Program-made: the position numbers and the translations under genes
IMG/VR virus record: IMGVR_UViG_3300027971_000046
Span: 1-64,000 of that record
Strand: one strand, 5' to 3'
Source of the DNA: a virus
DNA: 64,000 nt
The notes under the pieces: model-generated
The model's input: only the letters and a program-made list of their open reading frames with translations
Told to the model about the DNA's origin: nothing
The model's database searches: none
In this document: positions 25,584 to 49,317 of the stretch, piece by piece
Layout of the letters: every line of letters begins with the position of its first letter
How positions within the stretch are numbered: position 1 is the first letter of the stretch

Positions 25584-25612
25584 TTGCAAATATGCCCATT
25601 TTCCAGTACAAT
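25584..25612 (+). promoter_or_regulatory. sigma70-type early promoter, leaderless
   Basis: TTGCAA-17-TACAAT, ATG 6 nt downstream, no SD. Confidence 0.7.
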
Positions 25613-25618
25613 TTGGGT

Positions 25619-28000
25619 ATGTCTACGCCTCTCGTTTCCACCGTCCCGACCGCACCCACCACCGCCAAGTCCATGCTGGCGCGTCTGCTGGCTACCGAAA
25701 ACATTTCGGTGCAGCATGAGAACATTCCCACGGCATTTTTTGATCTGAAGGCGCGTAGCCTCCACCTGCCCATGTGGTCGGGTGTGAGCATGAACCTGTA
25801 CGATATGCTTGTGGGTCACGAAGTGGCTCACGCCCTGTTCACGCCGCAGGACGGTTGGCGCGATGCCATCGACTCCGTGAGCGCGGCTACGGGTTGCAAC
25901 AAGACCCTTGCCAAGTCGTACCTGAACATCGTGGAAGATGCGCGTATTGAGCGCATGATCAAGGCGAAGTTTCCTGGTCTCCGCGCTGACTTCATCAAGG
26001 GCTACGCCACGCTGAACGAGCGCAAGTTCTTTGGCGATCTTTCGAATATTGGCGAGATGTGCTTTGCTGACCGCATGAACCTGCACTACAAGTGCGGCGT
26101 TCACATTGGCACGGCGATCCGCTTCAGCGCGGAAGAGCAGGTGTTCGTTAGCCGCGTGGACGCTGCCAAGACTTGGGCGGATGTGGTGAGCATTGCCGAA
26201 GACATTATCCGTTGGGAGCAGTCGCAGCAGCAGGAGCAGGGCAACCAGCCCCAGCCGCAGGACGGCACTGACAGCGAGGGCGAGGGCGAGGCGCTGCCGT
26301 CCGACAATGACGGCGAGAACGGTGACGCGCAGGACAGCAGCGCGGACGGCATGGACATTGACGGCGAGGAGTCGCAGGAGCAGAACGGTTCTGGCAAGTC
26401 TACTTCGGACACCACCGAAGGCAAGGAGCAGAAGCAGCAGGACGGCAAGGCTTCGAACAACGGCGGCAATGACAGCGCACAGAGCGGCAGCGACAACGCT
26501 GTTGCTGACGGCAAGCCTGAAATGGGCGAAGACGCTGGCGATGACGCTCCCATGCCCACCACGAACAATGCGCTTGAGGAATCGCTCAAGACGCTGAACG
26601 CTGATGAGGGCGACTCGCCCAACCGCGTGATTCGTCTGCCCATGCCGTCCACTGATGCCAAGGAAATCGTGATTGATTTCACCCGCATCATGGCTGACCT
26701 GAAGGCTACGGGTTTCTCGCAGTACATGAACGGCAAGTTCAACATCGCGGACTACACCTCCGCTACCGCTACGATGGCGACCGCGTTCAACCGCAAGAAG
26801 GCGGCTGATGTGTTCCGCCGCTCCACCGTGGCAAAGACGGGTGCATTGGATACGCTCCGCATGAACCAGTACAAGTGGACGGACGACATCTTCCGCCGCA
26901 CCACCCGCGTGGCTGAAGGCAAGAACCACGGCATCGTGATTCTGCTTGACTGGTCGGGTTCAATGAGCGGCATCATGCAGTCCACCATTGGTCAGTTGCT
27001 TATTCTCACGGACTTCTGCCGCAAGGTGGGCGTTCCGTTCGAAGTGTACGCTTTCACGAACACGCCGTACATCAAGGCGGAAAAGGTTCCGCACTACGGC
27101 ACTCCCGAGTACGACCAGTATTGGAAGAACGAACACGCGAAGCAGGACGCTCGTACCGATGCGCTTTCGTTTGCCGCGATGAATCTGCTGAACTTCCTGT
27201 CCTCGCGCATGAAGGCTAACGAGTACGAGGCTATGAAGTCGGCTATGTGGAATTGGTCGCGCATGAGCGGCTACGATCTCCGCTTCGCCATGAACAGCAC
27301 CCCCACCCATGCGGCTCTGCTGTACGCATCGGAGATCGTTGGCAACTTCATCAAGCGCAACGGCATTCAGATTGCCCACACGGTGGTGCTGACTGACGGC
27401 GAACCCACGGACGACATTGATTTCTCGTTCAACCGTTGGGCGCGTTCGCAGGGCAAGGAAGCCTACGGTTCGGATTGGCGTGACTCGTACCGCAGCGCGG
27501 TGGTGATGAATGACCCCGTGACTGGCGCGTCTTACGATGTGCAGCGTGTGCATGGCAAGACGGGCAAGTACTACACCTACGGCAATGTGGTGTTCACTGG
27601 CGAAGGACGCAACCACACCACGCAGGTCGCGCTCGACATTCTGCGCCGCCGCACTGGCTCCAAGATCCATTGGATCGGTCTGACCGAGCGTAGCCGTGCC
27701 ATCCAAGCGGAGAACTACGGCATGACTGCCGCCAAGGGCAGCAATTGGAAGCGTGACGGTTTCATCCGTGGCGCGGTTGCGGGTTGGGATTCGGCGGTGA
27801 TTGTGAACGCCGAGCGTTTCCTCCGCAACACGGACGGCAGCGTGTCGGCAACCGCGCAGAAGTTCCTGACTGCTGCGGAGTCCAAGATGGACAACGCTGC
27901 CACGAAGTCCACGCTTGCCAATGCGTTCATGGAAACGCAGATCGCGCAGGGTTCGCTCCGCACGGTCGCGTCCATCATCGGAGACTACCTCGCGGTCTAA
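25619..28000 (+). CDS. VWA-domain protein with N-terminal HExxH peptidase-like domain (CobT-like partner of MoxR ATPase)
   Basis: GHEVAHALFT, NIVEDARIE, acidic linker, MIDAS DWSGSM, VLTDGE. Confidence 0.88.
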   Translation: MSTPLVSTVPTAPTTAKSMLARLLATENISVQHENIPTAFFDLKARSLHLPMWSGVSMNLYDMLVGHEVAHALFTPQDGWRDAIDSVSAATGCNKTLAKSYLNIVEDARIERMIKAKFPGLRADFIKGYATLNERKFFGDLSNIGEMCFADRMNLHYKCGVHIGTAIRFSAEEQVFVSRVDAAKTWADVVSIAEDIIRWEQSQQQEQGNQPQPQDGTDSEGEGEALPSDNDGENGDAQDSSADGMDIDGEESQEQNGSGKSTSDTTEGKEQKQQDGKASNNGGNDSAQSGSDNAVADGKPEMGEDAGDDAPMPTTNNALEESLKTLNADEGDSPNRVIRLPMPSTDAKEIVIDFTRIMADLKATGFSQYMNGKFNIADYTSATATMATAFNRKKAADVFRRSTVAKTGALDTLRMNQYKWTDDIFRRTTRVAEGKNHGIVILLDWSGSMSGIMQSTIGQLLILTDFCRKVGVPFEVYAFTNTPYIKAEKVPHYGTPEYDQYWKNEHAKQDARTDALSFAAMNLLNFLSSRMKANEYEAMKSAMWNWSRMSGYDLRFAMNSTPTHAALLYASEIVGNFIKRNGIQIAHTVVLTDGEPTDDIDFSFNRWARSQGKEAYGSDWRDSYRSAVVMNDPVTGASYDVQRVHGKTGKYYTYGNVVFTGEGRNHTTQVALDILRRRTGSKIHWIGLTERSRAIQAENYGMTAAKGSNWKRDGFIRGAVAGWDSAVIVNAERFLRNTDGSVSATAQKFLTAAESKMDNAATKSTLANAFMETQIAQGSLRTVASIIGDYLAV

Positions 28001-28086
28001 AAACCGCAGTTTTTCACTAATAGCGTAAAGTCCTTTACTACAAGGGGTTACAGCAGATATTATCGGACGCGCTGTCCCCGCAAGCC

Positions 28087-28115
28087 TTGAAATACAGGCA
28101 GAAATGCAGTAGAAT
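28087..28115 (+). promoter_or_regulatory. sigma70-type early promoter, leaderless
   Basis: TTGAAA-17-TAGAAT, ATG 7 nt downstream. Confidence 0.7.
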
Positions 28116-28122
28116 AAACCAC

Positions 28123-29469
28123 ATGAAGACCGCTTCTTTCAACATGACCTCTTCCCAGTTCGCCTTTATCGCTGCTGTTCGTCCGCACCTCGCGGCGTTC
28201 GGCATCACTGCCAAGACTTCCTGCAATGGGCAGTCGGTGCAGTTCTCGCCCCTGTTCCGCGCCGCGCACAAGGCGGGCTACGCTGCTGTTCCCGCGTGGT
28301 GCATGGACAAGACCCGCAAGTGTGGGCGTGGCGTGTACGCGCTGCCTGAACTCTTCGCGGACGATGCCGCGTTCACGATCACCGAAGTGAAGCGTGGTCG
28401 CCCTGCGGGTGCAAAGACCGCGAAGCCCGTGAAGAGCGCGAAGCCGAAGACTGTCGCGGCTGTGGAGCCGAAGACTGTCGCGGCTCCTGCCGCGCAGGTC
28501 GAAGAGTGCAGCGCGGTTGCGCTCACTGCGGGTACGGACACCGTGAGCCTTGCGCGTCAGGTCACGCAGGGCGAGGCGGACTCGTTCATTCCGTCCACCG
28601 ACTCCAACTATGTGGCATGGGGTTACCACAGCGAAATCAAGGACATCGTGAAGAAGGGCATTTTCGCGCCCGTGTTCATCACGGGTCTGAGCGGCAACGG
28701 TAAGACCACGATGGTGGAGCAGGTGTGCGCCTCGCTGAAGCGCGAGTGCATCCGCGTGAACTTCACCGCGCAGACGGACGAAGACGAACTCATCGGTGGC
28801 TTCCGCCTCATCAACGGCGAAACCAAGTTCGTGCCTGGTCCCGTGCTTGTGGCGATGGAGCGCGGCGCGATCCTGCTGCTTGACGAGATCGACCTTGGTG
28901 GTCACCTCATCATGTGCTTGCAGTCCGTGCTTGAGGGCAAGGGCAAGTACATCCCGAAGATCGGCAAGTATGTGCGTCCTGCCAAGGGCTTCAATGTGTT
29001 CGCTACCGCGAACACGAAGGGCAAGGGCGACAACGAAGGTCGCTTTGTCGGCACGAACATGATGAACGAGGCGTTCCTTGAGCGTTTCGACTTCACCTAC
29101 GAGCAGGACTACGCTTCCAACGCGGTGGAGAAGAAGATTCTCGCCAAGTACGCGGAGTCGCTTGGTGTGGACGAAGACGCTTTCATCGACAACCTTGTGT
29201 CGTGGGCTGACATCATCCGCAAGTCGTTCAAGCAGCAGGTGGTGAGCGAGATCATCACCACTCGCCGTCTGCTCCACATCATCAAGGCGTTCTCCATCTT
29301 TGGCGACAAGATGAAGAGCATTGAGCGGTGCGTGGCGCGTTTCGATGAGGACACGAAGGAGTCGTTCCTCCAGTTCTACACGAAGGTGGACGCGGACGCG
29401 CAGCCCAAGCCGCAGGTGCAGGACGCGCCCACGGCGAAGTCCAATGACCCCAACGCTTGCCCGTTCTAA
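28123..29469 (+). CDS. MoxR/CobS-like AAA+ ATPase
   Basis: Walker A GLSGNGKT, Walker B LLLDEID, ATANTKGKG, NEAFLERF. Confidence 0.92.
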   Translation: MKTASFNMTSSQFAFIAAVRPHLAAFGITAKTSCNGQSVQFSPLFRAAHKAGYAAVPAWCMDKTRKCGRGVYALPELFADDAAFTITEVKRGRPAGAKTAKPVKSAKPKTVAAVEPKTVAAPAAQVEECSAVALTAGTDTVSLARQVTQGEADSFIPSTDSNYVAWGYHSEIKDIVKKGIFAPVFITGLSGNGKTTMVEQVCASLKRECIRVNFTAQTDEDELIGGFRLINGETKFVPGPVLVAMERGAILLLDEIDLGGHLIMCLQSVLEGKGKYIPKIGKYVRPAKGFNVFATANTKGKGDNEGRFVGTNMMNEAFLERFDFTYEQDYASNAVEKKILAKYAESLGVDEDAFIDNLVSWADIIRKSFKQQVVSEIITTRRLLHIIKAFSIFGDKMKSIERCVARFDEDTKESFLQFYTKVDADAQPKPQVQDAPTAKSNDPNACPF

Positions 29470-38057: not shown

Positions 38058-38840
38058 ATGGCAACCGCCTCAACTATCGCACCCACGCGCCGTTCCGCCC
38101 GTTCGCCCATGCAGTACAAGCCCTACACGCTCAACCCGTCCGCAGTTCCCTACGGTCTGTGGATTGACATTCCGTTCCGCAAGCGCGGCAGCACGGCTAT
38201 CCGCTCCGAAGCGAAGGGTCGCGGTGCGCGTTTCTGCCCCGCCGCCAAGGGCACGATCAAGTGGTGGATGCCCAACAACCGCCTGACTGCGGACACCGTG
38301 AATTGGCTCAATCAGTACGAAATGATTCGCGGTGAGCGCAAGGCTCCCGTGTTCAACCCCAACGCCATGACGGTCGCGGACATCAACCTCGCGTACCCGT
38401 TCCGCGTGTACCTTGCCGTGCCGTTCGCAGACAAGGACTTTGCGAAGAACGCGGGTGCGCTGTGGAGCAGCGAGGACAAGCGGTGGTACTACAATGCCAC
38501 CAACCTCACGCAGCACCGCTTTGACGAAATGCTGAAGAAGCAGTGGGTGTTCTCGTTCCACGGTGTGCTGAAGAGCGACCCCACGCACACCGCTGTGGGT
38601 GTGTACTTCTTCAAGGAAGACTTTGGTGGAGGAGTTGCGGTGCAGAGTGTTGCCGCGCCGTTCGTGCCGCAAGTGTGGACTTTCGTGAAGAACGGATTGA
38701 TGATCACGATGAACACGATGGCAGACGGTCGCATCGCTCTTGAATCCGAGGATCAGTCCTATGTGGACGGTACTTATACGAAGGACGAAGCGCGTATCAC
38801 TTGGAACGCGCTCCTCTCTGACGGTTGGGTGCTTGCCTAA
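38058..38840 (+). CDS. DUF5710-like repeat protein, leaderless
   Basis: VPFADKDFAKNAGALW..KRWY plus an upstream degenerate copy; TTGACG-18-TACAAT promoter. Confidence 0.65.
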   Translation: MATASTIAPTRRSARSPMQYKPYTLNPSAVPYGLWIDIPFRKRGSTAIRSEAKGRGARFCPAAKGTIKWWMPNNRLTADTVNWLNQYEMIRGERKAPVFNPNAMTVADINLAYPFRVYLAVPFADKDFAKNAGALWSSEDKRWYYNATNLTQHRFDEMLKKQWVFSFHGVLKSDPTHTAVGVYFFKEDFGGGVAVQSVAAPFVPQVWTFVKNGLMITMNTMADGRIALESEDQSYVDGTYTKDEARITWNALLSDGWVLA

Positions 38841-38847
38841 AAGGAGA

Positions 38848-39120
38848 ATGACACAAATGTGCAATTACGAACACTGTGACAGTTGCGGTTGCCGCGTCCA
38901 CGCCAAGGCGCGGATGGTGGTGGAGTCCCTGCCGTGTGATGTGGCTTCCGCCAATGTGGGCGAGAGCGCGACCCTGTGCCGCCGTTGCTACGGCATCGTG
39001 TCGGGCAAGGACGCGCCTGTGCCTGATGACAACGCGAACCCGTGCCGCTGCTGCGGCGAAATCGTTTACGACACCGACTACGACACCTGTGACACCTGTG
39101 AGGAGACTGACAATGGCTAA
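38848..39120 (+). CDS. Cys-rich zinc-finger-like protein
   Basis: Four CxxC pairs; SD AAGGAG. Confidence 0.6.
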   Translation: MTQMCNYEHCDSCGCRVHAKARMVVESLPCDVASANVGESATLCRRCYGIVSGKDAPVPDDNANPCRCCGEIVYDTDYDTCDTCEETDNG

Positions 39121-39364
39121 CACCAAGACCAAGAAGAAGATTCGTAAGCCCGCAATTTTCCGCACCCGCAACATATACGCTGAAGCCTTTGTTGAGATCA
39201 GCGGTCGGCGTACCGTTCGCTTCTACGACAGAGGCAGCGTAGGGATGTGGTCGGATGTGGGAGTCACCGTCCCGAGCATTGCGGAATTCACCAAGTTCAC
39301 CGAGTGGATGAAGAAGGCACGGGCATGGACGCGACAGAGGAACTTCAAGGAGGAAACCAAGTGA
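39113..39364 (+). CDS. hypothetical protein, first unit of the cassette array
   Basis: Ends NFKEETK* in a junction repeat. Confidence 0.6.
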   Translation: MANTKTKKKIRKPAIFRTRNIYAEAFVEISGRRTVRFYDRGSVGMWSDVGVTVPSIAEFTKFTEWMKKARAWTRQRNFKEETK

Positions 39365-39567
39365 GCGACGAAGAGCGCGAGTACCTGAACGAAACGATCA
39401 GGAACCTCAACAATCAACTCGTTGATGCGTTGCGTGAGCGTGACGAGGCGAGGCGGATGTGCTGTGAGCGAGCCGCTATGGATGAGAGCGGATATGTGAA
39501 GCATGGAACCATGCTCCACTTCGCAGAGTCTCGCGGCTGGGACTGCTACAAGGAGGACTGCAAGTGA
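39361..39567 (+). CDS. ERDEARR...GWDC family small protein
   Basis: GTG start within the junction; paralog of 40445-40651. Confidence 0.7.
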   Translation: MSDEEREYLNETIRNLNNQLVDALRERDEARRMCCERAAMDESGYVKHGTMLHFAESRGWDCYKEDCK

Positions 39568-39782
39568 GCGAATACAAATGGGAAAAACTCAAAGGCAAGC
39601 GGCTACTGCTGACTGACAGGATCACGCGAATCCAACGCAGCGAATGGACTCTGCTTGAAATCTCCCCAAACGGCAAGGTGGGGAAGTTCCGCAACGAACT
39701 TGCCGACACCTGTTTTTGGACTGACCTTGATGATCTTGTTGTGGTGGATGTGCTTCCACCTAACAAGGAGGACGGCAAGTGA
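39564..39782 (+). CDS. hypothetical cassette protein
   Basis: Starts and ends in junction repeats. Confidence 0.65.
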   Translation: MSEYKWEKLKGKRLLLTDRITRIQRSEWTLLEISPNGKVGKFRNELADTCFWTDLDDLVVVDVLPPNKEDGK

Positions 39783-40009
39783 ACGAACACGATGCCATCG
39801 CAAGGATCAAGAGGCTGTCTCACAACATTAACTGTGCCGATGAGATCTGGAACTGTGCCGATGAGATCGCAGAAGTGATTGAGCGGCTAATCAATGAGCG
39901 TGATGAGGCGAGGCGGATGTATTGCGGGCGGGCATCCCGCGATGTGCCGCTTGATGCGTTTGATATTGCGAAGAACCACGGTTGGGATTGCTTCAAGGAG
40001 AACACATGA
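39779..40009 (+). CDS. ERDEARR...GWDC family small protein
   Basis: Same motifs; internal NCADEI duplication. Confidence 0.7.
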   Translation: MNEHDAIARIKRLSHNINCADEIWNCADEIAEVIERLINERDEARRMYCGRASRDVPLDAFDIAKNHGWDCFKENT

Positions 40010-40164
40010 AGATTAGAGCAGGAAAGTTCGTACACGATGCGCTCCGCGAGGGGCAACGCTTGCGCCCGAAGACATGGGGCAAGAAGGATCGCTGTCCCCG
40101 CAAAGCACGGCGTGATGCCAAGCGCGAGGTGCGCGGCTGGGACTGTTTCAAAGATAATGCTTGA
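40006..40164 (+). CDS. small basic cassette protein
   Basis: ATGA coupling; ends GWDCFKDNA*. Confidence 0.55.
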   Translation: MKIRAGKFVHDALREGQRLRPKTWGKKDRCPRKARRDAKREVRGWDCFKDNA

Positions 40165-40189
40165 CAACACCAATAGACTGTACTATACT
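40161..40189 (+). promoter_or_regulatory. near-consensus sigma70 promoter (copy 1)
   Basis: TTGACA-17-TATACT. Confidence 0.85.
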
Positions 40190-40208
40190 AACAACAAGGA
40201 GATTGACA

Positions 40209-40448
40209 ATGACTAAGACTAAGACCGCAACCAAGACCAAGAATAGGACTAATCACATGAAGACCGCAACCAAGACCAAGACCAAGAAGAACCTCGTCAG
40301 CCTCCACGACCGCATGGATAAGATTCAAGAAATGATTGAGTTTTTGTCCAACGACATCATGGACGGTACGATCACCAACAACGAGATCACCGACAAGTTG
40401 GACGAGATTGTTACCAAGATTGAGAACTTCAAGGAGGACGGCAAGTGA
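40209..40448 (+). CDS. hypothetical cassette protein
   Basis: SD AAGGAG; KT repeats; ends NFKEDGK*. Confidence 0.6.
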   Translation: MTKTKTATKTKNRTNHMKTATKTKTKKNLVSLHDRMDKIQEMIEFLSNDIMDGTITNNEITDKLDEIVTKIENFKEDGK

Positions 40449-40651
40449 ACGAAGAAGAGCGCGAGTACCTGAATGAAATGATCCGAAGTCTCAACAATCA
40501 ACTCGTTGATGCGTTGCGTGAGCGTGACGAGGCGAGGCGGGAAGCGGCAACATTTTACGCACGTCAGTTCTATAAGGATGACGCTGTTGATCGAATGTCT
40601 CGCATTTATGCGGAAGAGTGTGGTTGGGACTGTTTCAAAGATAACGCTTGA
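40445..40651 (+). CDS. ERDEARR...GWDC family small protein
   Basis: N-terminal half nearly identical to 39361-39567. Confidence 0.7.
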   Translation: MNEEEREYLNEMIRSLNNQLVDALRERDEARREAATFYARQFYKDDAVDRMSRIYAEECGWDCFKDNA

Positions 40652-40676
40652 CAACACCAATAGACTGTGCTATACT
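40648..40676 (+). promoter_or_regulatory. near-consensus sigma70 promoter (copy 2)
   Basis: TTGACA-17-TATACT, near-identical to copy 1. Confidence 0.85.
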
Positions 40677-40700
40677 ATACCAACAACAAGGAGAATAACA

Positions 40701-41054
40701 ATGACTAATCACAACAAGATCGCAGCAGATGAGTTTTGCAACAAGACGCACACTTCACCGATTGAGGCTTATGTCGCCAATCGAATCTATGAGTTGGAGA
40801 CGCAGGTGAATCGGCTGAAGCAGGAGCGGGATGAAGCCTGTGCAGCCATTGAGAAGCCTGCACAGAAGGCAAGCAAGTTCCGCAACCTGACTCAACAGGT
40901 CAACGATGTGCTTGACCTTACCCGTGGCTATGACCCCAACTCTCTTGTGGGACGGATGGCTGCTCTTTTGGAGCAGACCACATTCTACAAGGATCTCTAC
41001 TACAACACCCTGACTCCCGCACAGCGTGAGAACCCCGTGCCTCCAAAGGAGTAA
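40701..41054 (+). CDS. coiled-coil cassette protein
   Basis: SD AAGGAG; KQERDEA motif. Confidence 0.6.
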   Translation: MTNHNKIAADEFCNKTHTSPIEAYVANRIYELETQVNRLKQERDEACAAIEKPAQKASKFRNLTQQVNDVLDLTRGYDPNSLVGRMAALLEQTTFYKDLYYNTLTPAQRENPVPPKE

Positions 41055-41057
41055 AAT

Positions 41058-41711
41058 ATGAAAACTTTGATCGCAACTTTTGCTATTACCACTTCCGCAT
41101 CCGCTGGCATTGTCACCTTCGACAATATCAATCCTCCTGCACCCACCGATCAGACAAGCAATCCTGGCGTTCAATTGACCATGGATGTGGATGGATTTGC
41201 CTTCACTAGCACGAACACCTATTATGGTGACCGCCTATGGTACTACTACACTTTTTGCCCTGCCGTTTGGAGCAGCGGAACTGCTCTTCCCATCGGCATT
41301 CGTGGAACCACAGCAGTCTTTAGCGGGTACTACCAAAACGCTGCTCCAACCTACAATGTCAGTCGAAGCGATGGAAGTTTGTGGGCATTCAACAAGGCAT
41401 ACTTTACCGCTCTTTGGAGTACAGGGGCGATTCATCTTGTTGGTTTGCGTGGTGGAGTTGAGGTTTTCAACTTCACTCAATCCATCAGTAATACGCAGCA
41501 GACGATGGTTAGTTTGTCATCCTACCCAGGTCCAATCAACTGGATTGACACTTTGAAGATCACAAATGAATCAAATGATCTGTATGGTCGTAGGAACTTC
41601 ATCATGGACGATATGTTCTACACCCTTCCTGCTCCAGGTGCATTGGCTCTCATGGGGTGTGGTTTGTTTGGCATTCGCAATCGTCGTCGCTACGAGGAGG
41701 ACGGCAAGTGA
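41058..41711 (+). CDS. secreted protein with PEP-CTERM-like sorting signal
   Basis: Signal peptide (SASA-GIVTFD), FIMDD, LPAPGALALMGCGLFGIRNRRR. Confidence 0.8.
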   Translation: MKTLIATFAITTSASAGIVTFDNINPPAPTDQTSNPGVQLTMDVDGFAFTSTNTYYGDRLWYYYTFCPAVWSSGTALPIGIRGTTAVFSGYYQNAAPTYNVSRSDGSLWAFNKAYFTALWSTGAIHLVGLRGGVEVFNFTQSISNTQQTMVSLSSYPGPINWIDTLKITNESNDLYGRRNFIMDDMFYTLPAPGALALMGCGLFGIRNRRRYEEDGK

Positions 41712-41742
41712 GCGACAGCACAGACCGTCCACGAAAACAAGA

Positions 41743-41772
41743 AGCCGCTCCTCACGGGGCGGCTTTCTTTTT
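41743..41772. terminator. terminator, copy 1 of a 24-bp direct repeat
   Basis: AGCCGCTC-CTCACG-GGGCGGCT followed by a T tract. Confidence 0.75.
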
Positions 41773-41795
41773 GGCTTTAGAACAAGTTGGTCGGT

Positions 41796-42380
41796 TCACT
41801 TCTTTTTTCCCATCACTACCAATCTGATGTTTTCACCAAACTTGTCATTGTATACGATTGAATCGTGCTTGTCTGGATTGTATTTGTCTATAGTCGCAAT
41901 TTTGTTCTTTCTTTGTGATGTATCAACTGCGGATACCTGTCTCATCTTTGCCAATGTTGCCCACAATGAACGGGAACCTGCCGATTGGGTGGGTCCACTT
42001 ATGACACCACCAAACCTGTCTGCAATCATTCCATAGACCTTTGCAGCCAATCCACTCACCTTTGCGTTTCCGCCACGATGGGACGGATGAATGTTTGGTG
42101 TGTCCACAGCAACAATACTTCTTCCATTTCGCCTACCACCGTCAACCAATGGAAATACCCCAATCTGTTTCCCCTCATGGTGTACGGTTACTGTGTCGGC
42201 TCCCATATCGTCTTGAATATGATGAACTTCATATGGACCGATATTTCCCAAATGTGCTATATGCTTGGTGTTCGGATCTGCATTCGGTTTTGTTGAATGC
42301 ACATATCTGCGAGAAGCCGCCCACGGGCGTTCTACTGGCATCTCCGACAAATATTCAACGAACTGCGAGAAGGACTTCAT
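41796..42380 (-). CDS. GNAT-like putative internal head protein
   Basis: MKSFSQFVEYLSE; IHPSHRG..GLAAKVY...SGPTQSAGSRSLW. Confidence 0.6.
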   Translation of the reverse strand: MKSFSQFVEYLSEMPVERPWAASRRYVHSTKPNADPNTKHIAHLGNIGPYEVHHIQDDMGADTVTVHHEGKQIGVFPLVDGGRRNGRSIVAVDTPNIHPSHRGGNAKVSGLAAKVYGMIADRFGGVISGPTQSAGSRSLWATLAKMRQVSAVDTSQRKNKIATIDKYNPDKHDSIVYNDKFGENIRLVVMGKKK

Positions 42381-42438
42381 AGATTGCACCTATTCATTTT
42401 ATGTATACCGATTTTTACTTTCCATTCTTCGTAACCAC

Positions 42439-42466
42439 AGCCGCTCCTCACGGGGCGGCTTTTTTC
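42439..42466. terminator. terminator, copy 2 of a 24-bp direct repeat
   Basis: Identical AGCCGCTCCTCACGGGGCGGCTTT. Confidence 0.75.
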
Positions 42467-42489
42467 ATAGATACTTTCGGAGGTTCGTC

Positions 42490-42810
42490 ATGCTTGACAG
42501 TGAAAAAATCCTCGGCATTGACTTGGTTCGCATTGACGGCGAACACGGCATCTACGGAATATACGAATCCGTGAACGGCGGGGAAGAGTGGCGCAAACTT
42601 GCAGAGTCTAAAAAGATTTACGAACTGCTACAGTTTGCAAAAACCAAGTTTTCAGACGCAACACCAATGGTGTTGCCACAGCAGATTCAAAATATTTTGA
42701 CTTATGAAATCATGGAAGAGGCGGCAGATATGAAGCGGAAGGCAGCAGAAGAAAAAGCAAACCGAAATTGGTTTACGCGACTTCTACATTTCTTTAAACG
42801 CAGGAGATAG
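42490..42810 (+). CDS. hypothetical protein
   Basis: SD GGAGG. Confidence 0.6.
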   Translation: MLDSEKILGIDLVRIDGEHGIYGIYESVNGGEEWRKLAESKKIYELLQFAKTKFSDATPMVLPQQIQNILTYEIMEEAADMKRKAAEEKANRNWFTRLLHFFKRRR

Positions 42811-44844: not shown

Positions 44845-45067
44845 GCAGTACTACGGTTGTGGATGGATCGTGGGACTGGAACACTACCTGTGGACGCTTG
44901 CACTGCGTCAGGACACCGAAGAAGGACAGATTCTGCTGTACTGCGCGGAAATGAGCGGCGGGTGGTGGATGTGGGACGACAAGCAGGAAGCAGCGGTGTT
45001 TGTGCCTCTTCCAATTTGGCGTTCCGCGTACAACGAAAACGAGATGGCGGAATCAGTCAGTCCATAA
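44828..45067 (+). CDS. hypothetical protein
   Basis: MRDLSEQYYGCGWIVGLEHYLW...GGWWMW. Confidence 0.55.
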   Translation: MRDLSEQYYGCGWIVGLEHYLWTLALRQDTEEGQILLYCAEMSGGWWMWDDKQEAAVFVPLPIWRSAYNENEMAESVSP

Positions 45068-45071
45068 ATAC

Positions 45072-45385
45072 CTACGGCATTGTTGATCGTGGACGAAAAC
45101 GCATACAGCACGGGGGTTCAACTCCCCCCGACTCCATTACTCAGATGCGCGAACGCGGAGTGACTGCATCACCCGCCTCTTCCCGCAGTCAAGCCCTCCG
45201 TTTGCAGCGGGGGCAAAACATAAGGGGTCGATTCGGAATCGACTGGTGCGGAGTACTGAAGCAGGAGATGTCCGAGGCGTGTATCAGATCCTCGTTAAAA
45301 AAACTGGTGCAACAATAATTGCTAACCAATTAGCAATGGCGGCTTGAAGCCGTGGGGACTAGCCCTCCCGCATCTGAACGGGCTG
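45072..45385 (+). ncRNA. ssrA: circularly permuted (two-piece) tmRNA
   Basis: Acceptor piece ending GGGGG-TTCAACT-CCCCC-CGACTCCA (45136) precedes GGGGTCGATTCGGAATCGAC (45224); G3:U70; tag ORF ANQLAMAA* at 45321-45347. Confidence 0.88.
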
Positions 45386-45411
45386 AAAAAGGAGCCGCAA
45401 GGCTCCTTTTT
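45386..45411 (+). terminator. intrinsic terminator
   Basis: AAAAAGGAGCC-GCAA-GGCTCCTTTTT. Confidence 0.8.
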
Positions 45412-45442
45412 CCATTTATACATACTAGACGGAGGAAATGGC

Positions 45443-48050: not shown

Positions 48051-48491
48051 ATGAACGCAAAGCGAATTCAAAGACTCCTTGGGATCGCGTATCCCCTGTG
48101 CTTGGACAATCCCCGTCCCAAGAAGCACATTTCAATTATTCTCCGCAAGGGGTCGGTTGAAGCCATTGGGTCTAATGTAATGAAGACCCATCCAATGGCA
48201 GTGCAGCACGGCTACCTGTTCGGGGAAATGCACTCTGAATTGGATGCATTTTTGAAAGTCAATACTGCTGCCAAGCGCGGTCTAGTCCTGTTTAATGTGC
48301 GGTTCAACCGCTTTGGGCAGATGCGTATGGCGCGTCCGTGTGTGCGCTGTATGCCGTGGTGCGTGGGCTGTTTTGACGAGATTTGGTACACCACGGACGC
48401 AGGGGTAATGCTGCACGGTGAGGGGTTGACTCCTATAAATATAGGGATACCCAAGGAGAAACTGCATGAAAAAGTTCACCCAATATCTTGA
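48051..48491 (+). CDS. cytidine/dCMP deaminase-superfamily protein
   Basis: KTHP...MHSELDA...MARPCVRC. Confidence 0.75.
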   Translation: MNAKRIQRLLGIAYPLCLDNPRPKKHISIILRKGSVEAIGSNVMKTHPMAVQHGYLFGEMHSELDAFLKVNTAAKRGLVLFNVRFNRFGQMRMARPCVRCMPWCVGCFDEIWYTTDAGVMLHGEGLTPINIGIPKEKLHEKVHPIS

Positions 48492-49317
48492 TTCGGCTGC
48501 ACTAAACGAAGCACTGTCCCGTAAGGACACGGACGAGGTTCCACTCGTTGAGTCCAAACTGTCTCGTGTATTTCAGTACATTGAAGACGACAAGCGCGAC
48601 TTTGGAATTATGAGTGCATTCCGTGGAGCCAACTCCGACAAGGAGAACAAGGCAAAGCACGAAGAACTCAAGCAGATGGTGCGTGGCATGGGCTACGGCT
48701 TCATTGAACTGCGTGGTGGTTACAAGGGCGATGAAGGCTTCAATGAAGAATTGAGTCTGCTTATTCCGAACATCACCAAGAAGGAAATTGTTGCGCTTGG
48801 TCGCAAGTTTGCACAGCACTCCGTGATGTACAAGAATGACGAGGACTTTTACTATATCGGCACAAACGAAGAAGCAGGTGTAGGCAAGGTTCTTATGAAG
48901 TTCAAGAAGGGCGAAGGACAGCACAATCTGGAACTCGCCAAGCACAAGGTTGTGGATTTCTTCTCGCAACTTCGCAAGGGCGCACACAACGACAAGAAGT
49001 TCGTGTTTAATGCCAAGGATGAGACTCCTGCCCAAACCGCTCAAGCAGCACAGACAGACAAGGCTGCTGCTGCGCGTCACCGTCCAGGTGATGTGTGGAA
49101 GACCTCTAGCGGCTTGTGGGGCGGCATGGACGCATCAGGCAACTACGAGTACTTTGACGACAAGGAAAGCGCACAGAAGTACGCCAAGAAGCACCGCGCA
49201 GGATACAAGATCCAAGAGCGCGAGGAGTGGGGATTCAACAAGGCTGCATATCTTCGTCGTGGCGAACAACCCAAGTGGATCACGATTTATGAAGATTCTA
49301 CCGAGGAAAATGCCTAA
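48466..49317 (+). CDS. putative internal head protein (DUF3293-like core plus shared module)
   Basis: MKKFTQYL..LNEA; GIMSAFRG...GYGF...EELSLLI...LGRKFAQHSV; TATAAATA upstream. Confidence 0.65.
   Translation: MKKFTQYLDSAALNEALSRKDTDEVPLVESKLSRVFQYIEDDKRDFGIMSAFRGANSDKENKAKHEELKQMVRGMGYGFIELRGGYKGDEGFNEELSLLIPNITKKEIVALGRKFAQHSVMYKNDEDFYYIGTNEEAGVGKVLMKFKKGEGQHNLELAKHKVVDFFSQLRKGAHNDKKFVFNAKDETPAQTAQAAQTDKAAAARHRPGDVWKTSSGLWGGMDASGNYEYFDDKESAQKYAKKHRAGYKIQEREEWGFNKAAYLRRGEQPKWITIYEDSTEENA

Follow-up and report, generated by a model that had tools for sequence, protein, structure and literature searches.

A coding-embedded junction repeat at the boundaries of shuffled small genes in a T4-like phage and in other phage backbones

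The mosaic structure of phage genomes has been debated between two explanations, namely homologous exchange at short shared linkers and random illegitimate joints that are filtered by selection. For lambdoid phages, boundary or 'linker' sequences have reportedly been proposed as sites of modular exchange, both in the modular theory of Susskind and Botstein and in comparisons of HK620 and HK97. According to the parts of the original reports drawn upon here, T4-type phages carry promoter-plus-stem-loop repeats of ~100 bp, the PeSLs, with 52 copies in phi1 and 51 in RB49, and PeSL shuffling in these phages is accompanied by mini-circles that have been shown experimentally (Arbiol et al. 2010, PMC2839356; Comeau et al. 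2014, PMC4122927). The repeats called SAS in Cluster K mycobacteriophages have the consensus GGGATAGGAGCCC and are dispersed in 11-19 copies over the non-structural half of the genome, the associated start being ATG in 80 of 93 cases (Pope et al. 2011, PMC3203893, for the portion used here). Here we examine the first 64 kb (64,000 nucleotides, hereafter the window) of the 73,079-b IMG/VR record IMGVR_UViG_3300027971_000046, judged 33% complete, and in particular a tandem array of small genes whose boundaries carry a repeated 17-nt sequence, hereafter called the junction. An initial annotation of the window had described this array as integron-like.

Ten closely packed genes were read on the plus strand between 38857 and 41711, and the junction 17-mer AGGAGGACGGCAAGTGA matches five times at ≤3 mismatches in the 64-kb window, always on the plus strand and between 39348 and 41711. 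The copies at 39766, 40432 and 41695 are exact, that at 39551 has one mismatch and that at 39348 has three; the chance expectation is 0.16 matches, and none of 100 shuffles got to five. A degenerate variant, AAGGAGAACACATGA, was read directly in the sequence at 39995-40009, so that the junction positions of the initial annotation, including its variant at 39995, are confirmed. Each junction had been taken to combine the tail of one gene, a Shine-Dalgarno (SD) sequence and the overlapping GTG start of the next. This holds for four junctions, in which the GTG (39361, 39564, 39779 and 40445) overlaps the upstream TGA by 4 nt, AAGGAGG sits 7 nt 5' of that GTG and the upstream protein ends in K-E-x-x-K-TGA, but not for the fifth (41695), behind which there is only a 39-codon frame running into a terminator. 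The arrangement is that of a coupled gene pair with stop/start overlap, in which the SD lies within the upstream open reading frame (ORF) at functional spacing; judging from these letters, the junction probably couples translation of the two genes.

Two other modules recur in the array. The GWDC module GGYTGGGAYTGYTWCAA is found at 39535, 39980, 40135 and 40622 (four matches vs 0.01 expected) and the 21-mer encoding ERDEARR, GAGCGTGAYGAGGCGAGGCGG, at 39436, 39896 and 40520 (three matches vs 0.00 expected); both had been pointed out before, and both stand, far above chance. A second type of repeated junction, ~90 nt long, consists of a GWDCFKDNA stop, TTGACA-N17-TATACT, an SD and an ATG, and is present at 40126-40216 and 40613-40708. 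By consensus scan only, a sigma-70-like promoter matches at 11 of 12 positions in both of these copies, at 40161 and 40648, and the same scan gave no such promoter at the five coupling junctions. No terminator-like site was found at the junctions or at the promoter modules.

The junction is common in other phages, since an exact scan of IMG/VR with the 17-mer met at least 119 stretches. Among the matches listed there are 150 exact junctions by hand count, including the three of the window; 96 follow a W-[DNE]-C-[FYW] end, as in the family of paralogues described below (family A), and 54 follow other tails, for instance PPNKEDGK, MRGEYEEDGK, DDFQDEEDGK and PRRPKKEDGK, while the genes downstream are, again among the matches listed, highly diverse. 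These numbers bear on an explanation that we hold to be improbable, namely that the junction is the ordinary 3' end of an expanded paralogous family (GWDCFKEDGK-stop) within generic mosaicism, in which illegitimate joints arise and selection keeps those at gene borders. The 96 family-type ends would suit it, as would the large size (282 relatives) and multi-copy nature of the family; the 54 other tails would not, nor would the 25 clusters into which the upstream ends fall on loose clustering, 97 ends being in a single cluster. Some larger genes also begin at a junction GTG (L067, L112 and L092), and by eye one of the products is ThyX-like (MSKVTLIDKMGNDD) and another metallophosphoesterase-like (MSRVLIIGDTHFP).

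At least three phage backbones carry the junction. The first comprises gp32-bearing T4-like phages, that is the window and a 177-kb record that is 98% complete (G004); the second, represented by a complete 125-kb record that has terminal repeats, lacks both gp32 and ERF; and the third consists of mid-size contigs that have a PD-(D/E)XK exonuclease and an ERF annealing protein beside the array (ERF is borne by L093, L072 and L025). Five records hold 4, 5, 1, 0 and 3 copies, which are clustered and, within each record, all on one strand, and the start is mostly GTG (53 of 58). When a 30-mer made up of GWDC and the junction was searched in 185,579 prokaryote species, each represented by one genome, the single match was to a 1.4-kb contig of a metagenome-assembled genome and gave no clue to a prophage or host; the junction is therefore a feature of phages rather than of their hosts. 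A literature search that did not extend to supplements found no description of the junction or of family A. An 18-mer of the promoter was also scanned, but three of its six exact matches (L220, L222 and L223) are without promoter context and look like chance.

To quantify shuffling, we collected junctions at ≤2 mismatches with 150-nt flanks and removed duplicates, which left 177 junctions from 138 loci, the flanks being clustered at ≥80% nucleotide identity over ≥90 nt. Flank clustering replaced a loose single-linkage clustering of proteins that had merged all family-A genes, and the statistics rest on it because a simple gene caller misses short genes such as A1 of the window. The 177 non-identical junctions represent 86 upstream and 93 downstream types in 156 combinations; of the 35 upstream types with several members, 30 occur with two or more downstream types, and the reverse holds for 28 of 32 downstream types. 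Among 219 pairs that share the downstream flank and differ in the upstream one, 145 lose similarity 0-2 nt ahead of the 17-mer and 66 keep it up to 13-30 nt ahead, i.e. through GWDC. Similarity never continues for more than 30 nt past the junction, either in these 219 upstream pairs or in 238 downstream pairs, a length that the flank clusters limit by construction to ~90 nt. In 48 pairs, one side is ≥97% identical over 120 nt while the other side belongs to different flank clusters, with 21-38% identity in the 25 pairs listed; some of the exchanges thus look recent.

The same loci contain other tight gene boundaries, and these served as a control for swapping. Downstream sequences differ in 110 of 119 same-upstream pairs at junctions (92%; 84 of 93, or 90%, in the reverse direction), vs 163 of 381 (43%; reverse 75 of 293, 26%) at the other tight boundaries and 145 of 337 (43%; reverse 37 of 229, 16%) at boundaries involving neither junction nor family A. 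Swapping is hence 2-5 times commoner at the junction, a control that is indicative rather than exact because its boundaries come from the simple gene caller and its loci were retrieved via the junction. That other boundaries of the loci are often recombinant too would be in keeping with generic mosaicism at family tails. Such mosaicism would not account for the excess at junctions (92% and 90% vs 43% and 26%), and illegitimate joints would share no sequence, whereas the joints seen here share 17-45 nt.

The same picture emerges from individual loci. L016 and L068, from records of 122 kb and 125 kb, have collinear flanks with 85-92% nucleotide identity, between which the array has been replaced, and L115 and L207 possess the same cassettes in a different order, with high-scoring segment pairs (HSPs) ending at junction positions. 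The array of the window is itself a patchwork, in which the best contigs (87-98% identity) differ for 39344-39456, 39436-39569, 39531-39786, 39896-39999, 40427-40543 and 40679-41055; the first two of these pieces overlap gene A1, and the boundaries of HSPs are concentrated at the junction, ERDEARR and GWDC. Cassette content and order therefore vary among relatives with breakpoints at the three repeats, both of which the initial annotation had proposed to look for, and the fixed order and content that would speak against its cassettes is not what relatives have (156 combinations, arrays replaced or reordered).

Further arrangements were seen in contigs from four freshwater metagenomes (X2-X5), mixed populations that were aligned to 38800-42500 at 90% likeness. 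At the junction, ERDEARR, GWDC and the promoter module, these contigs either end, omit a stretch or run on into other sequence. Differing gene starts follow 39567 and 41713, chimeric joints lead from ERDEARR to GWDC (39456>40127 and 39459>40625), and other joints go back from J5, the last junction, to the sequence after J1 or J4, the first and fourth (41704>39358 and 41712>40450). What the contigs show is co-existing arrangements, not circles or events within one genome. The k-mer-based contigs of runs X2-X5 fragment at the repeated modules; hence gaps or long-range chimeras may be present where such arrays have been assembled from short reads. In the RNA runs, only 5-8% of the sequence words were present.

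We next consider whether the junction is kept as DNA or as peptide. A seed of RGWDCF codons provided a sample without selection on the sequence behind the motif, and among its 110 distinct ends the 17-mer is exact in 18, has one mismatch in 10 and two in 11, while the remaining ends mostly keep AAGGAG, a short spacer and the ATGA/GTGA overlap. Near variants are mainly nonsynonymous (KENGK, KEADK, KEDNK, KEGGK and KEDSK). In 58 junctions with ≤4 mismatches from seed-independent loci, conservation is lowest (0.60-0.79) at Asp codon positions 2 and 3 and at Gly codon positions 1 and 2 (0.69 and 0.66), whereas the third Gly position is better kept (0.88), as are this position and the following AA together (0.88-0.93) and AGGAGG (0.88-0.95). 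The junction is consequently not a protein tail under selection, given that its variants are mostly nonsynonymous and the third position of Gly is better kept than the other two; by its letters, the pattern points to nucleotide-level constraint or identity by descent, unlike that of a selected peptide. The codons of ERDEARR also depart widely from background (AGG 74% vs 10%, GCG 86% vs 33%, CGC 81% vs 35%), while those of GWDC are near background once seed bias is allowed for. Thus, the junction and ERDEARR are conserved at the nucleotide level and GWDC mainly at the protein level. Conservation at the protein level with saturated synonymous sites, the observation that would have weakened the initial annotation, therefore does not apply to the junction or to ERDEARR; for GWDC, which behaves mainly as a protein motif, that annotation is not supported. 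The background-like codon variation of GWDC agrees with an ordinary family tail; the nonsynonymous variants, the well-kept third position of Gly and the codon choice of ERDEARR go against it.

These data equally bear on the possibility, in our opinion a rather unlikely one, that the junction is a regulatory start element of the SAS kind, of which a host or phage factor, or the ribosome, recognises SD-spacer-CAAGTGA and so sets expression, shuffling being incidental. Conservation indeed reaches past the SD to the CAA before the start (0.88-0.93), regardless of codon position, and non-canonical variants retain AAGGAG, the short spacer and the ATGA/GTGA overlap. In each record the copies are on one strand, and they are attached to genes of many families, as is the case for SAS (PMC3203893, in the portion available). 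Conversely, a record has 0-5 clustered copies vs the 11-19 dispersed SAS that the same portion gives per genome, neighbouring junctions of the same arrays have other spacers, and the 17-mer is common to at least three unrelated backbones, for which no shared regulator was identified. Nor is an excess of recombinant joints expected from regulation alone.

Genes of family A combine ERDEARR and GWDC. The initial annotation had spoken of unrelated gene bodies throughout the array, which does not hold for 39361-39567 (A1), 39779-40009 (A2) and 40445-40651 (A3), paralogues that align as one family and include a 117-nt repeat with 91% identity. A search with the 68-aa protein found 282 relatives at E≤0.001, and no Pfam domain was seen among the 120 matches listed. 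Their common plan is an N-module, ERDEARR, a variable middle, A-x3-GWDCF and a tail, and in the alignment identical middles are joined to different N-modules and tails. In the 187 family-A genes of the loci, 106 N-module types and 84 middle types form 158 combinations, and 30 of the 33 middle types with several members have more than one N partner. AlphaFold2 predicts A3 to be a helical hairpin (helices 3-42 and 45-58, pLDDT 94.4), for which Foldseek returned nothing at E≤0.001 from the PDB, and a protein atlas search with family A gave unnamed clusters only.

The recombination that produces the joints was approached from several sides. PF00589, the tyrosine recombinase family, has no match in the 73,079-b record (33% complete), although all control genomes were matched. 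Folding of 80 nt of single-stranded DNA around each of the five junctions gave no consistent attC-like hairpin (z of +1.22, +0.65, -2.40, +1.30 and -2.27), the two lowest values being due to pairing of unique flanks and not of the repeat, and no consistent inverted repeat of the attC kind was found at the junctions, no attC covariance model having been used. We also surveyed the array-strand genes of 220 loci plus a 20-kb piece of the window (221 sets) in loose clusters, naming by Pfam the longest member of ten recurring clusters. The named clusters were Sipho_Gp157 (31 sets), RusA (26 and 16), ERF (15), DNA polymerase A (13), T7-type primase-helicase (13) and 5'-3' exonuclease (11), and a cluster of 19 sets is C5 methylase-like by eye, one such gene being named by Pfam in L014; no integrase was present among the ten clusters tested.

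A site-specific, integron-like cassette system, in which a gene outside the window supplies a recombinase or homing-type nuclease that is dedicated to the junction and cuts out or inserts cassettes there, consequently appears to us very improbable. Breakpoints are sharply localised, as such a system would have it, the junctions are direct repeats in one orientation, one of them (41695) is 'dangling' without a gene behind, and the joints that go back would fit circles or tandem copies; the enzyme might also lie in the missing part of a record that is only 33% complete. The same joints could equally come from other genomes that have a g10-like gene before a family-A gene, g10 being the last gene of the array. 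The lack of a PF00589 match in the 73-kb record, the lack of a consistent hairpin at the five junctions and the putative promoters inside the array all speak against the system, and the commonest named families are general replication and recombination genes. Moreover, breakpoints also occur at ERDEARR and GWDC within genes, which fits homology and not a single recognition site. On these grounds the integron-like mechanism of the initial annotation is not upheld, and of the recombinase that it suggested seeking elsewhere in the genome, no tyrosine type was found in the 73-kb record, 33% complete as it is.

The reading that we favour, with a probability of roughly 0.6, is that the junction is a translational-coupling linker that doubles as a short-homology crossover point in a hyperplastic region. 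What the data show is its anatomy, its conservation at the nucleotide level, a combinatorial choice of partners whose breakpoints fall at the modules, and more swapping than at other boundaries; the joints are probably made by homologous recombination instead of a dedicated enzyme. The pattern fits general short-homology recombination, a PeSL kind of process, and not a site-specific cassette system. On this reading, the T4-like freshwater phage has a hyperplastic region in which small accessory genes form an array, its parts being a modular, multi-copy helical-hairpin family (family A) and unrelated ORFans, and its genes would be expressed early. They are joined by a portable linker made of AAGGAGG, a 7-nt spacer and a GTG overlapping the upstream TGA, which also encodes the last codons (E-D-G-K) of any gene placed upstream. 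Because the same 17-45 nt are present at many boundaries in several co-occurring phage types, there would be homology enough for crossover by general recombination, presumably with machinery of the UvsX/gp32 type in T4-like phages and with ERF, exonuclease and RusA in mid-size phages. Since both reading frames and a working start are kept at the linker, the recombinant would be viable, and the linker would thereby spread along with the cassettes. ERDEARR (as DNA) and, more weakly, GWDC may act likewise inside family-A genes, swapping protein halves. Rad52-like recombinases, Erf included, have been shown experimentally to perform relaxed recombination (PMC3945230, in the part consulted), with which exchange at the junction is compatible.

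Several considerations weigh against this linker model. Recombination is deduced from assemblies, no event having been observed directly, and all the comparative DNA comes from short-read metagenome assembly, so the long-range order of cassettes is possibly chimeric, even if each junction adjacency must nonetheless be backed by assembler k-mers. A length of 17 nt is short for efficient homologous recombination, and longer homology exists only beside GWDC or a shared N-module. The 17-mer sample was selected for the exact sequence, and as 39 of the 110 unselected family-A ends have ≤2 mismatches, the linker is common but not universal. Since other tight boundaries are recombinant in 26-43% of pairs, shuffling is in part a property of the region, and conservation of the spacer and of the CAA before GTG could reflect a translational or binding function instead. 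The record of the window (33% complete) shows gp32 only, and no UvsX, ERF or other recombinase. In the part of De Paepe et al. (PMC3945230) that we draw upon, no exchanges were found between virulent and temperate coliphages, which would make sharing across backbones unusual, or else the lifestyles of the backbones may differ less than they seem to. A bolder version of the model strikes us as doubtful. In it, junction, ERDEARR and GWDC would form a community-wide exchange standard, an integron analogue that is recombinase-free or served by a still-unknown enzyme, whereby cassettes pass by circles or template switching and dock, in frame and coupled, in co-infecting unrelated phages (T4-like, ERF-type and 125-kb), and family A would be a combinatorial library of two-module effectors, to which the same machinery gives diversity as phage and host compete in an arms race.

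The individual features of the array, all on the plus strand, can be followed from its 5' side. It is preceded by g1 (38857-39120; ORF and SD read), a Cys-rich ORFan of 87 aa without match in Pfam, PHROGs or NCBIfam, which has 95% amino acid identity to a gene in L061, though CobT and CobS of L061 are only 48% and 70% identical. The Lys/Thr-rich 83-aa ORFan g2 (39113-39364; ORF read) has its KEETK-stop tail in J1 (39348-39364; AGGAGGAAACCAAGTGA, 3 mismatches), which provides SD, spacer and a GTG overlapping TGA, and where starts of BLAST HSPs cluster. A1 (39361-39567) then consists of N-module, ERDEARR (copy 1, 39436-39456, an intragenic swap point), variable middle, GWDCY (GWDC copy 1, 39535-39551) and KEDCK-stop, the last within J2 (39551-39567, 1 mismatch), after which metagenome contigs have other downstream sequence at 39567. 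Between J2 and J3 (39766-39782, exact) lies the 72-aa cassette g4 (39564-39782), with 91-94% nucleotide identity to L025, L014, L207, L195, L039 and L058 that is confined to 39529-39790; it is followed by five different genes across contigs, and the identity between the T4-like window and the ERF-bearing L025 is 93%. A2 (39779-40009) has the tail GWDCFKENT-stop, ERDEARR copy 2 (39896-39916, with 14 HSP starts in the 39890 bin), GWDC copy 2 (39980-39996, with 17 HSP ends in the 39990 bin) and the degenerate junction with an ATG/TGA overlap (39995-40009), in place of which a contig of run X2 has the canonical letters. It also contains an internal 21-nt tandem duplication, exact over 18 nt at 39830-39847 and 39851-39868, 21 nt apart, that yields NCADEIW-NCADEI.

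The 52-aa ORF g6 (40006-40164) has only its GWDCFKDNA end in common with the others and leads into copy 1 of the promoter-type junction (40126-40216, promoter 40161-40189), recognised from the repeat and the 11/12 promoter match. It is followed by g7 (40209-40448), a Lys/Thr-rich ORFan of 79 aa whose KEDGK-stop tail falls in J4 (40432-40448, exact), and then by A3 (40445-40651), the predicted helical hairpin, with ERDEARR copy 3 (40520-40540) and copy 2 of the promoter-type junction (40613-40708; GWDC 40622-40638, promoter 40648-40676). Cassette g9 (40701-41054, 117 aa) has 97.6%, 96.5% and 94.0% nucleotide identity to L207, L115 and L017, confined to 40679-41055. The 217-aa protein of g10 (41058-41711) has a hydrophobic, signal-like N-terminus and a PEP-CTERM-like C-terminal anchor (LPAPGALALMGCGLFGIRNRRRY) with the junction tail EEDGK-stop immediately after it; its NCBIfam PEP-CTERM matches are sub-threshold (E 0.001-0.009), distant homologues with 29-36% identity are present in L175, L058 and L039, and one metagenome contig lacks the gene (joint 41055>41714), having 38 nt in its place. 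The exact J5 (41695-41711) is the 'dangling' junction, and a different gene start follows it in run X2. An intrinsic terminator (41741-41766) ends the array. None of the ten array genes reached a curated cut-off in Pfam, PHROGs or NCBIfam, the only matches being weak PHROGs of unknown function and those to PEP-CTERM. Lys/Thr-rich N-termini occur in several cassettes (39113-39364, 40209-40448 and L221 from ~300), namely MANTKTKKK, MTKTKTATKTK and MPNTKKKTKTT; a related group, MSKKKPKTKITK...EEDGK, is frequent downstream of junctions, and these cassettes may be a second small family of the arrays. Beyond the terminator, the 27-nt core of which recurs at 42439-42465, a 197-aa ORFan on the minus strand (41796-42389) lies between direct copies of the terminator hairpin (27 nt, 41743-41769 and 42439-42465, 96% identical); the arrangement resembles a moron-style insertion where a terminator is repeated, i.e. 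a second kind of repeat-bounded cassette beside the array.

The window encodes gp32, T4 baseplate, gp53 and tail-cap proteins by Pfam match and is accordingly assigned to a T4-like myovirus; it also has CobT-like, CobS-like and tail proteins and six tRNAs. Blastn of 38800-41800 against 50,697 phage records gave no match. The neighbours of the array are accessory genes, comprising a metallophosphoesterase, DUF6321, WYL_2, DUF5710 and a SAM-lyase-like protein. The CobT-like/CobS-like pair and the SAM-lyase-family protein (25592-29469 and 48466-49317) are of an auxiliary or anti-restriction type and belong to the accessory half of the genome that also contains the array, this CobT being 29% identical to a cyanomyovirus 'peptidase'. 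A permuted (two-piece) tmRNA is present on the plus strand at 45076-45347 (Rfam RF04321, 63.4 bits vs a gathering score of 47), and ARAGORN calls it at 45046-45438 with the tag peptide ANQLAMAA. Permuted tmRNAs occur in α-proteobacteria, some β-proteobacteria and some cyanobacteria, and the phage-borne one may hint at the host.

In the debate on phage mosaicism, the junction makes the linker model directly testable in one system, because a defined linker of 17-45 nt recurs at more than 100 boundaries in several kinds of freshwater phages, with combinatorial partners, recent-looking exchanges and a measurable excess of swapping. As the linker would itself be the coupling signal, new genes would arrive already translatable, and the same logic inside genes would recombine protein halves. 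The motif is also a handle for hyperplastic accessory regions, and for a large unknown protein family, in freshwater viromes, where such arrays are hard for short-read assemblers.

Integrons and the array have in common tandem small cassettes in one orientation, variable content and order, and a repeated boundary element. Unlike an integron, the array has putative promoters inside, no IntI was found (in a record 33% complete) and no attC-like fold, the boundary element is coding and translational, and the recombination genes nearby in relatives are general ones. The lambdoid linkers are reportedly similar in that short homologies at gene borders let unrelated modules exchange homologously. They differ from one defined sequence with more than 100 recurrences in uncultured phages, which overlaps both reading frames and belongs to a dedicated array of small genes.

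With PeSLs there are several similarities, within the portions of the reports used here: both repeats are short, conserved and regulatory, lie in hyperplastic T4-like regions beside ORFans, contain the upstream stop, SD and downstream start, and serve as crossover points that bring expression signals along. The junction, too, has ORFans as neighbours within a hyperplastic part of a T4-type genome, and insertions, deletions and replacements end at its copies. The promoter-type junctions of the window (40126-40216 and 40613-40708) resemble the promoter half of a PeSL. The main junction, however, has neither promoter nor stem-loop, is 17-45 nt long instead of ~100 bp, lies inside coding sequence where it encodes the last residues of the upstream protein, and would act at the level of translation through its stop/start overlap. 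It is common to non-T4 backbones and has intragenic counterparts that shuffle protein halves, and it is known here from assembled contigs, whereas mini-circles have been shown for PeSLs.

In anatomy, the closest system is the SAS of Cluster K mycobacteriophages, to judge from the available portion of PMC3203893. Both are asymmetric conserved sequences with AGGAG that share one orientation and stand a few nt before the starts of non-structural genes from different families; the repeat sometimes includes the upstream stop, and the conservation of both exceeds what pairing with rRNA explains. They differ in sequence, in copy number (0-5 clustered copies for the junction) and in start codon, mostly GTG for the junction, and that portion of PMC3203893 reports no recombination breakpoints at SAS such as those seen here. 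The junction is thus distinct from both PeSL and SAS in being embedded in coding sequence, with a stop/start overlap, shared across backbones and accompanied by intragenic counterparts; by analogy, it is best read as a coding-embedded counterpart of T4 PeSLs and mycobacteriophage SAS and not as an integron.

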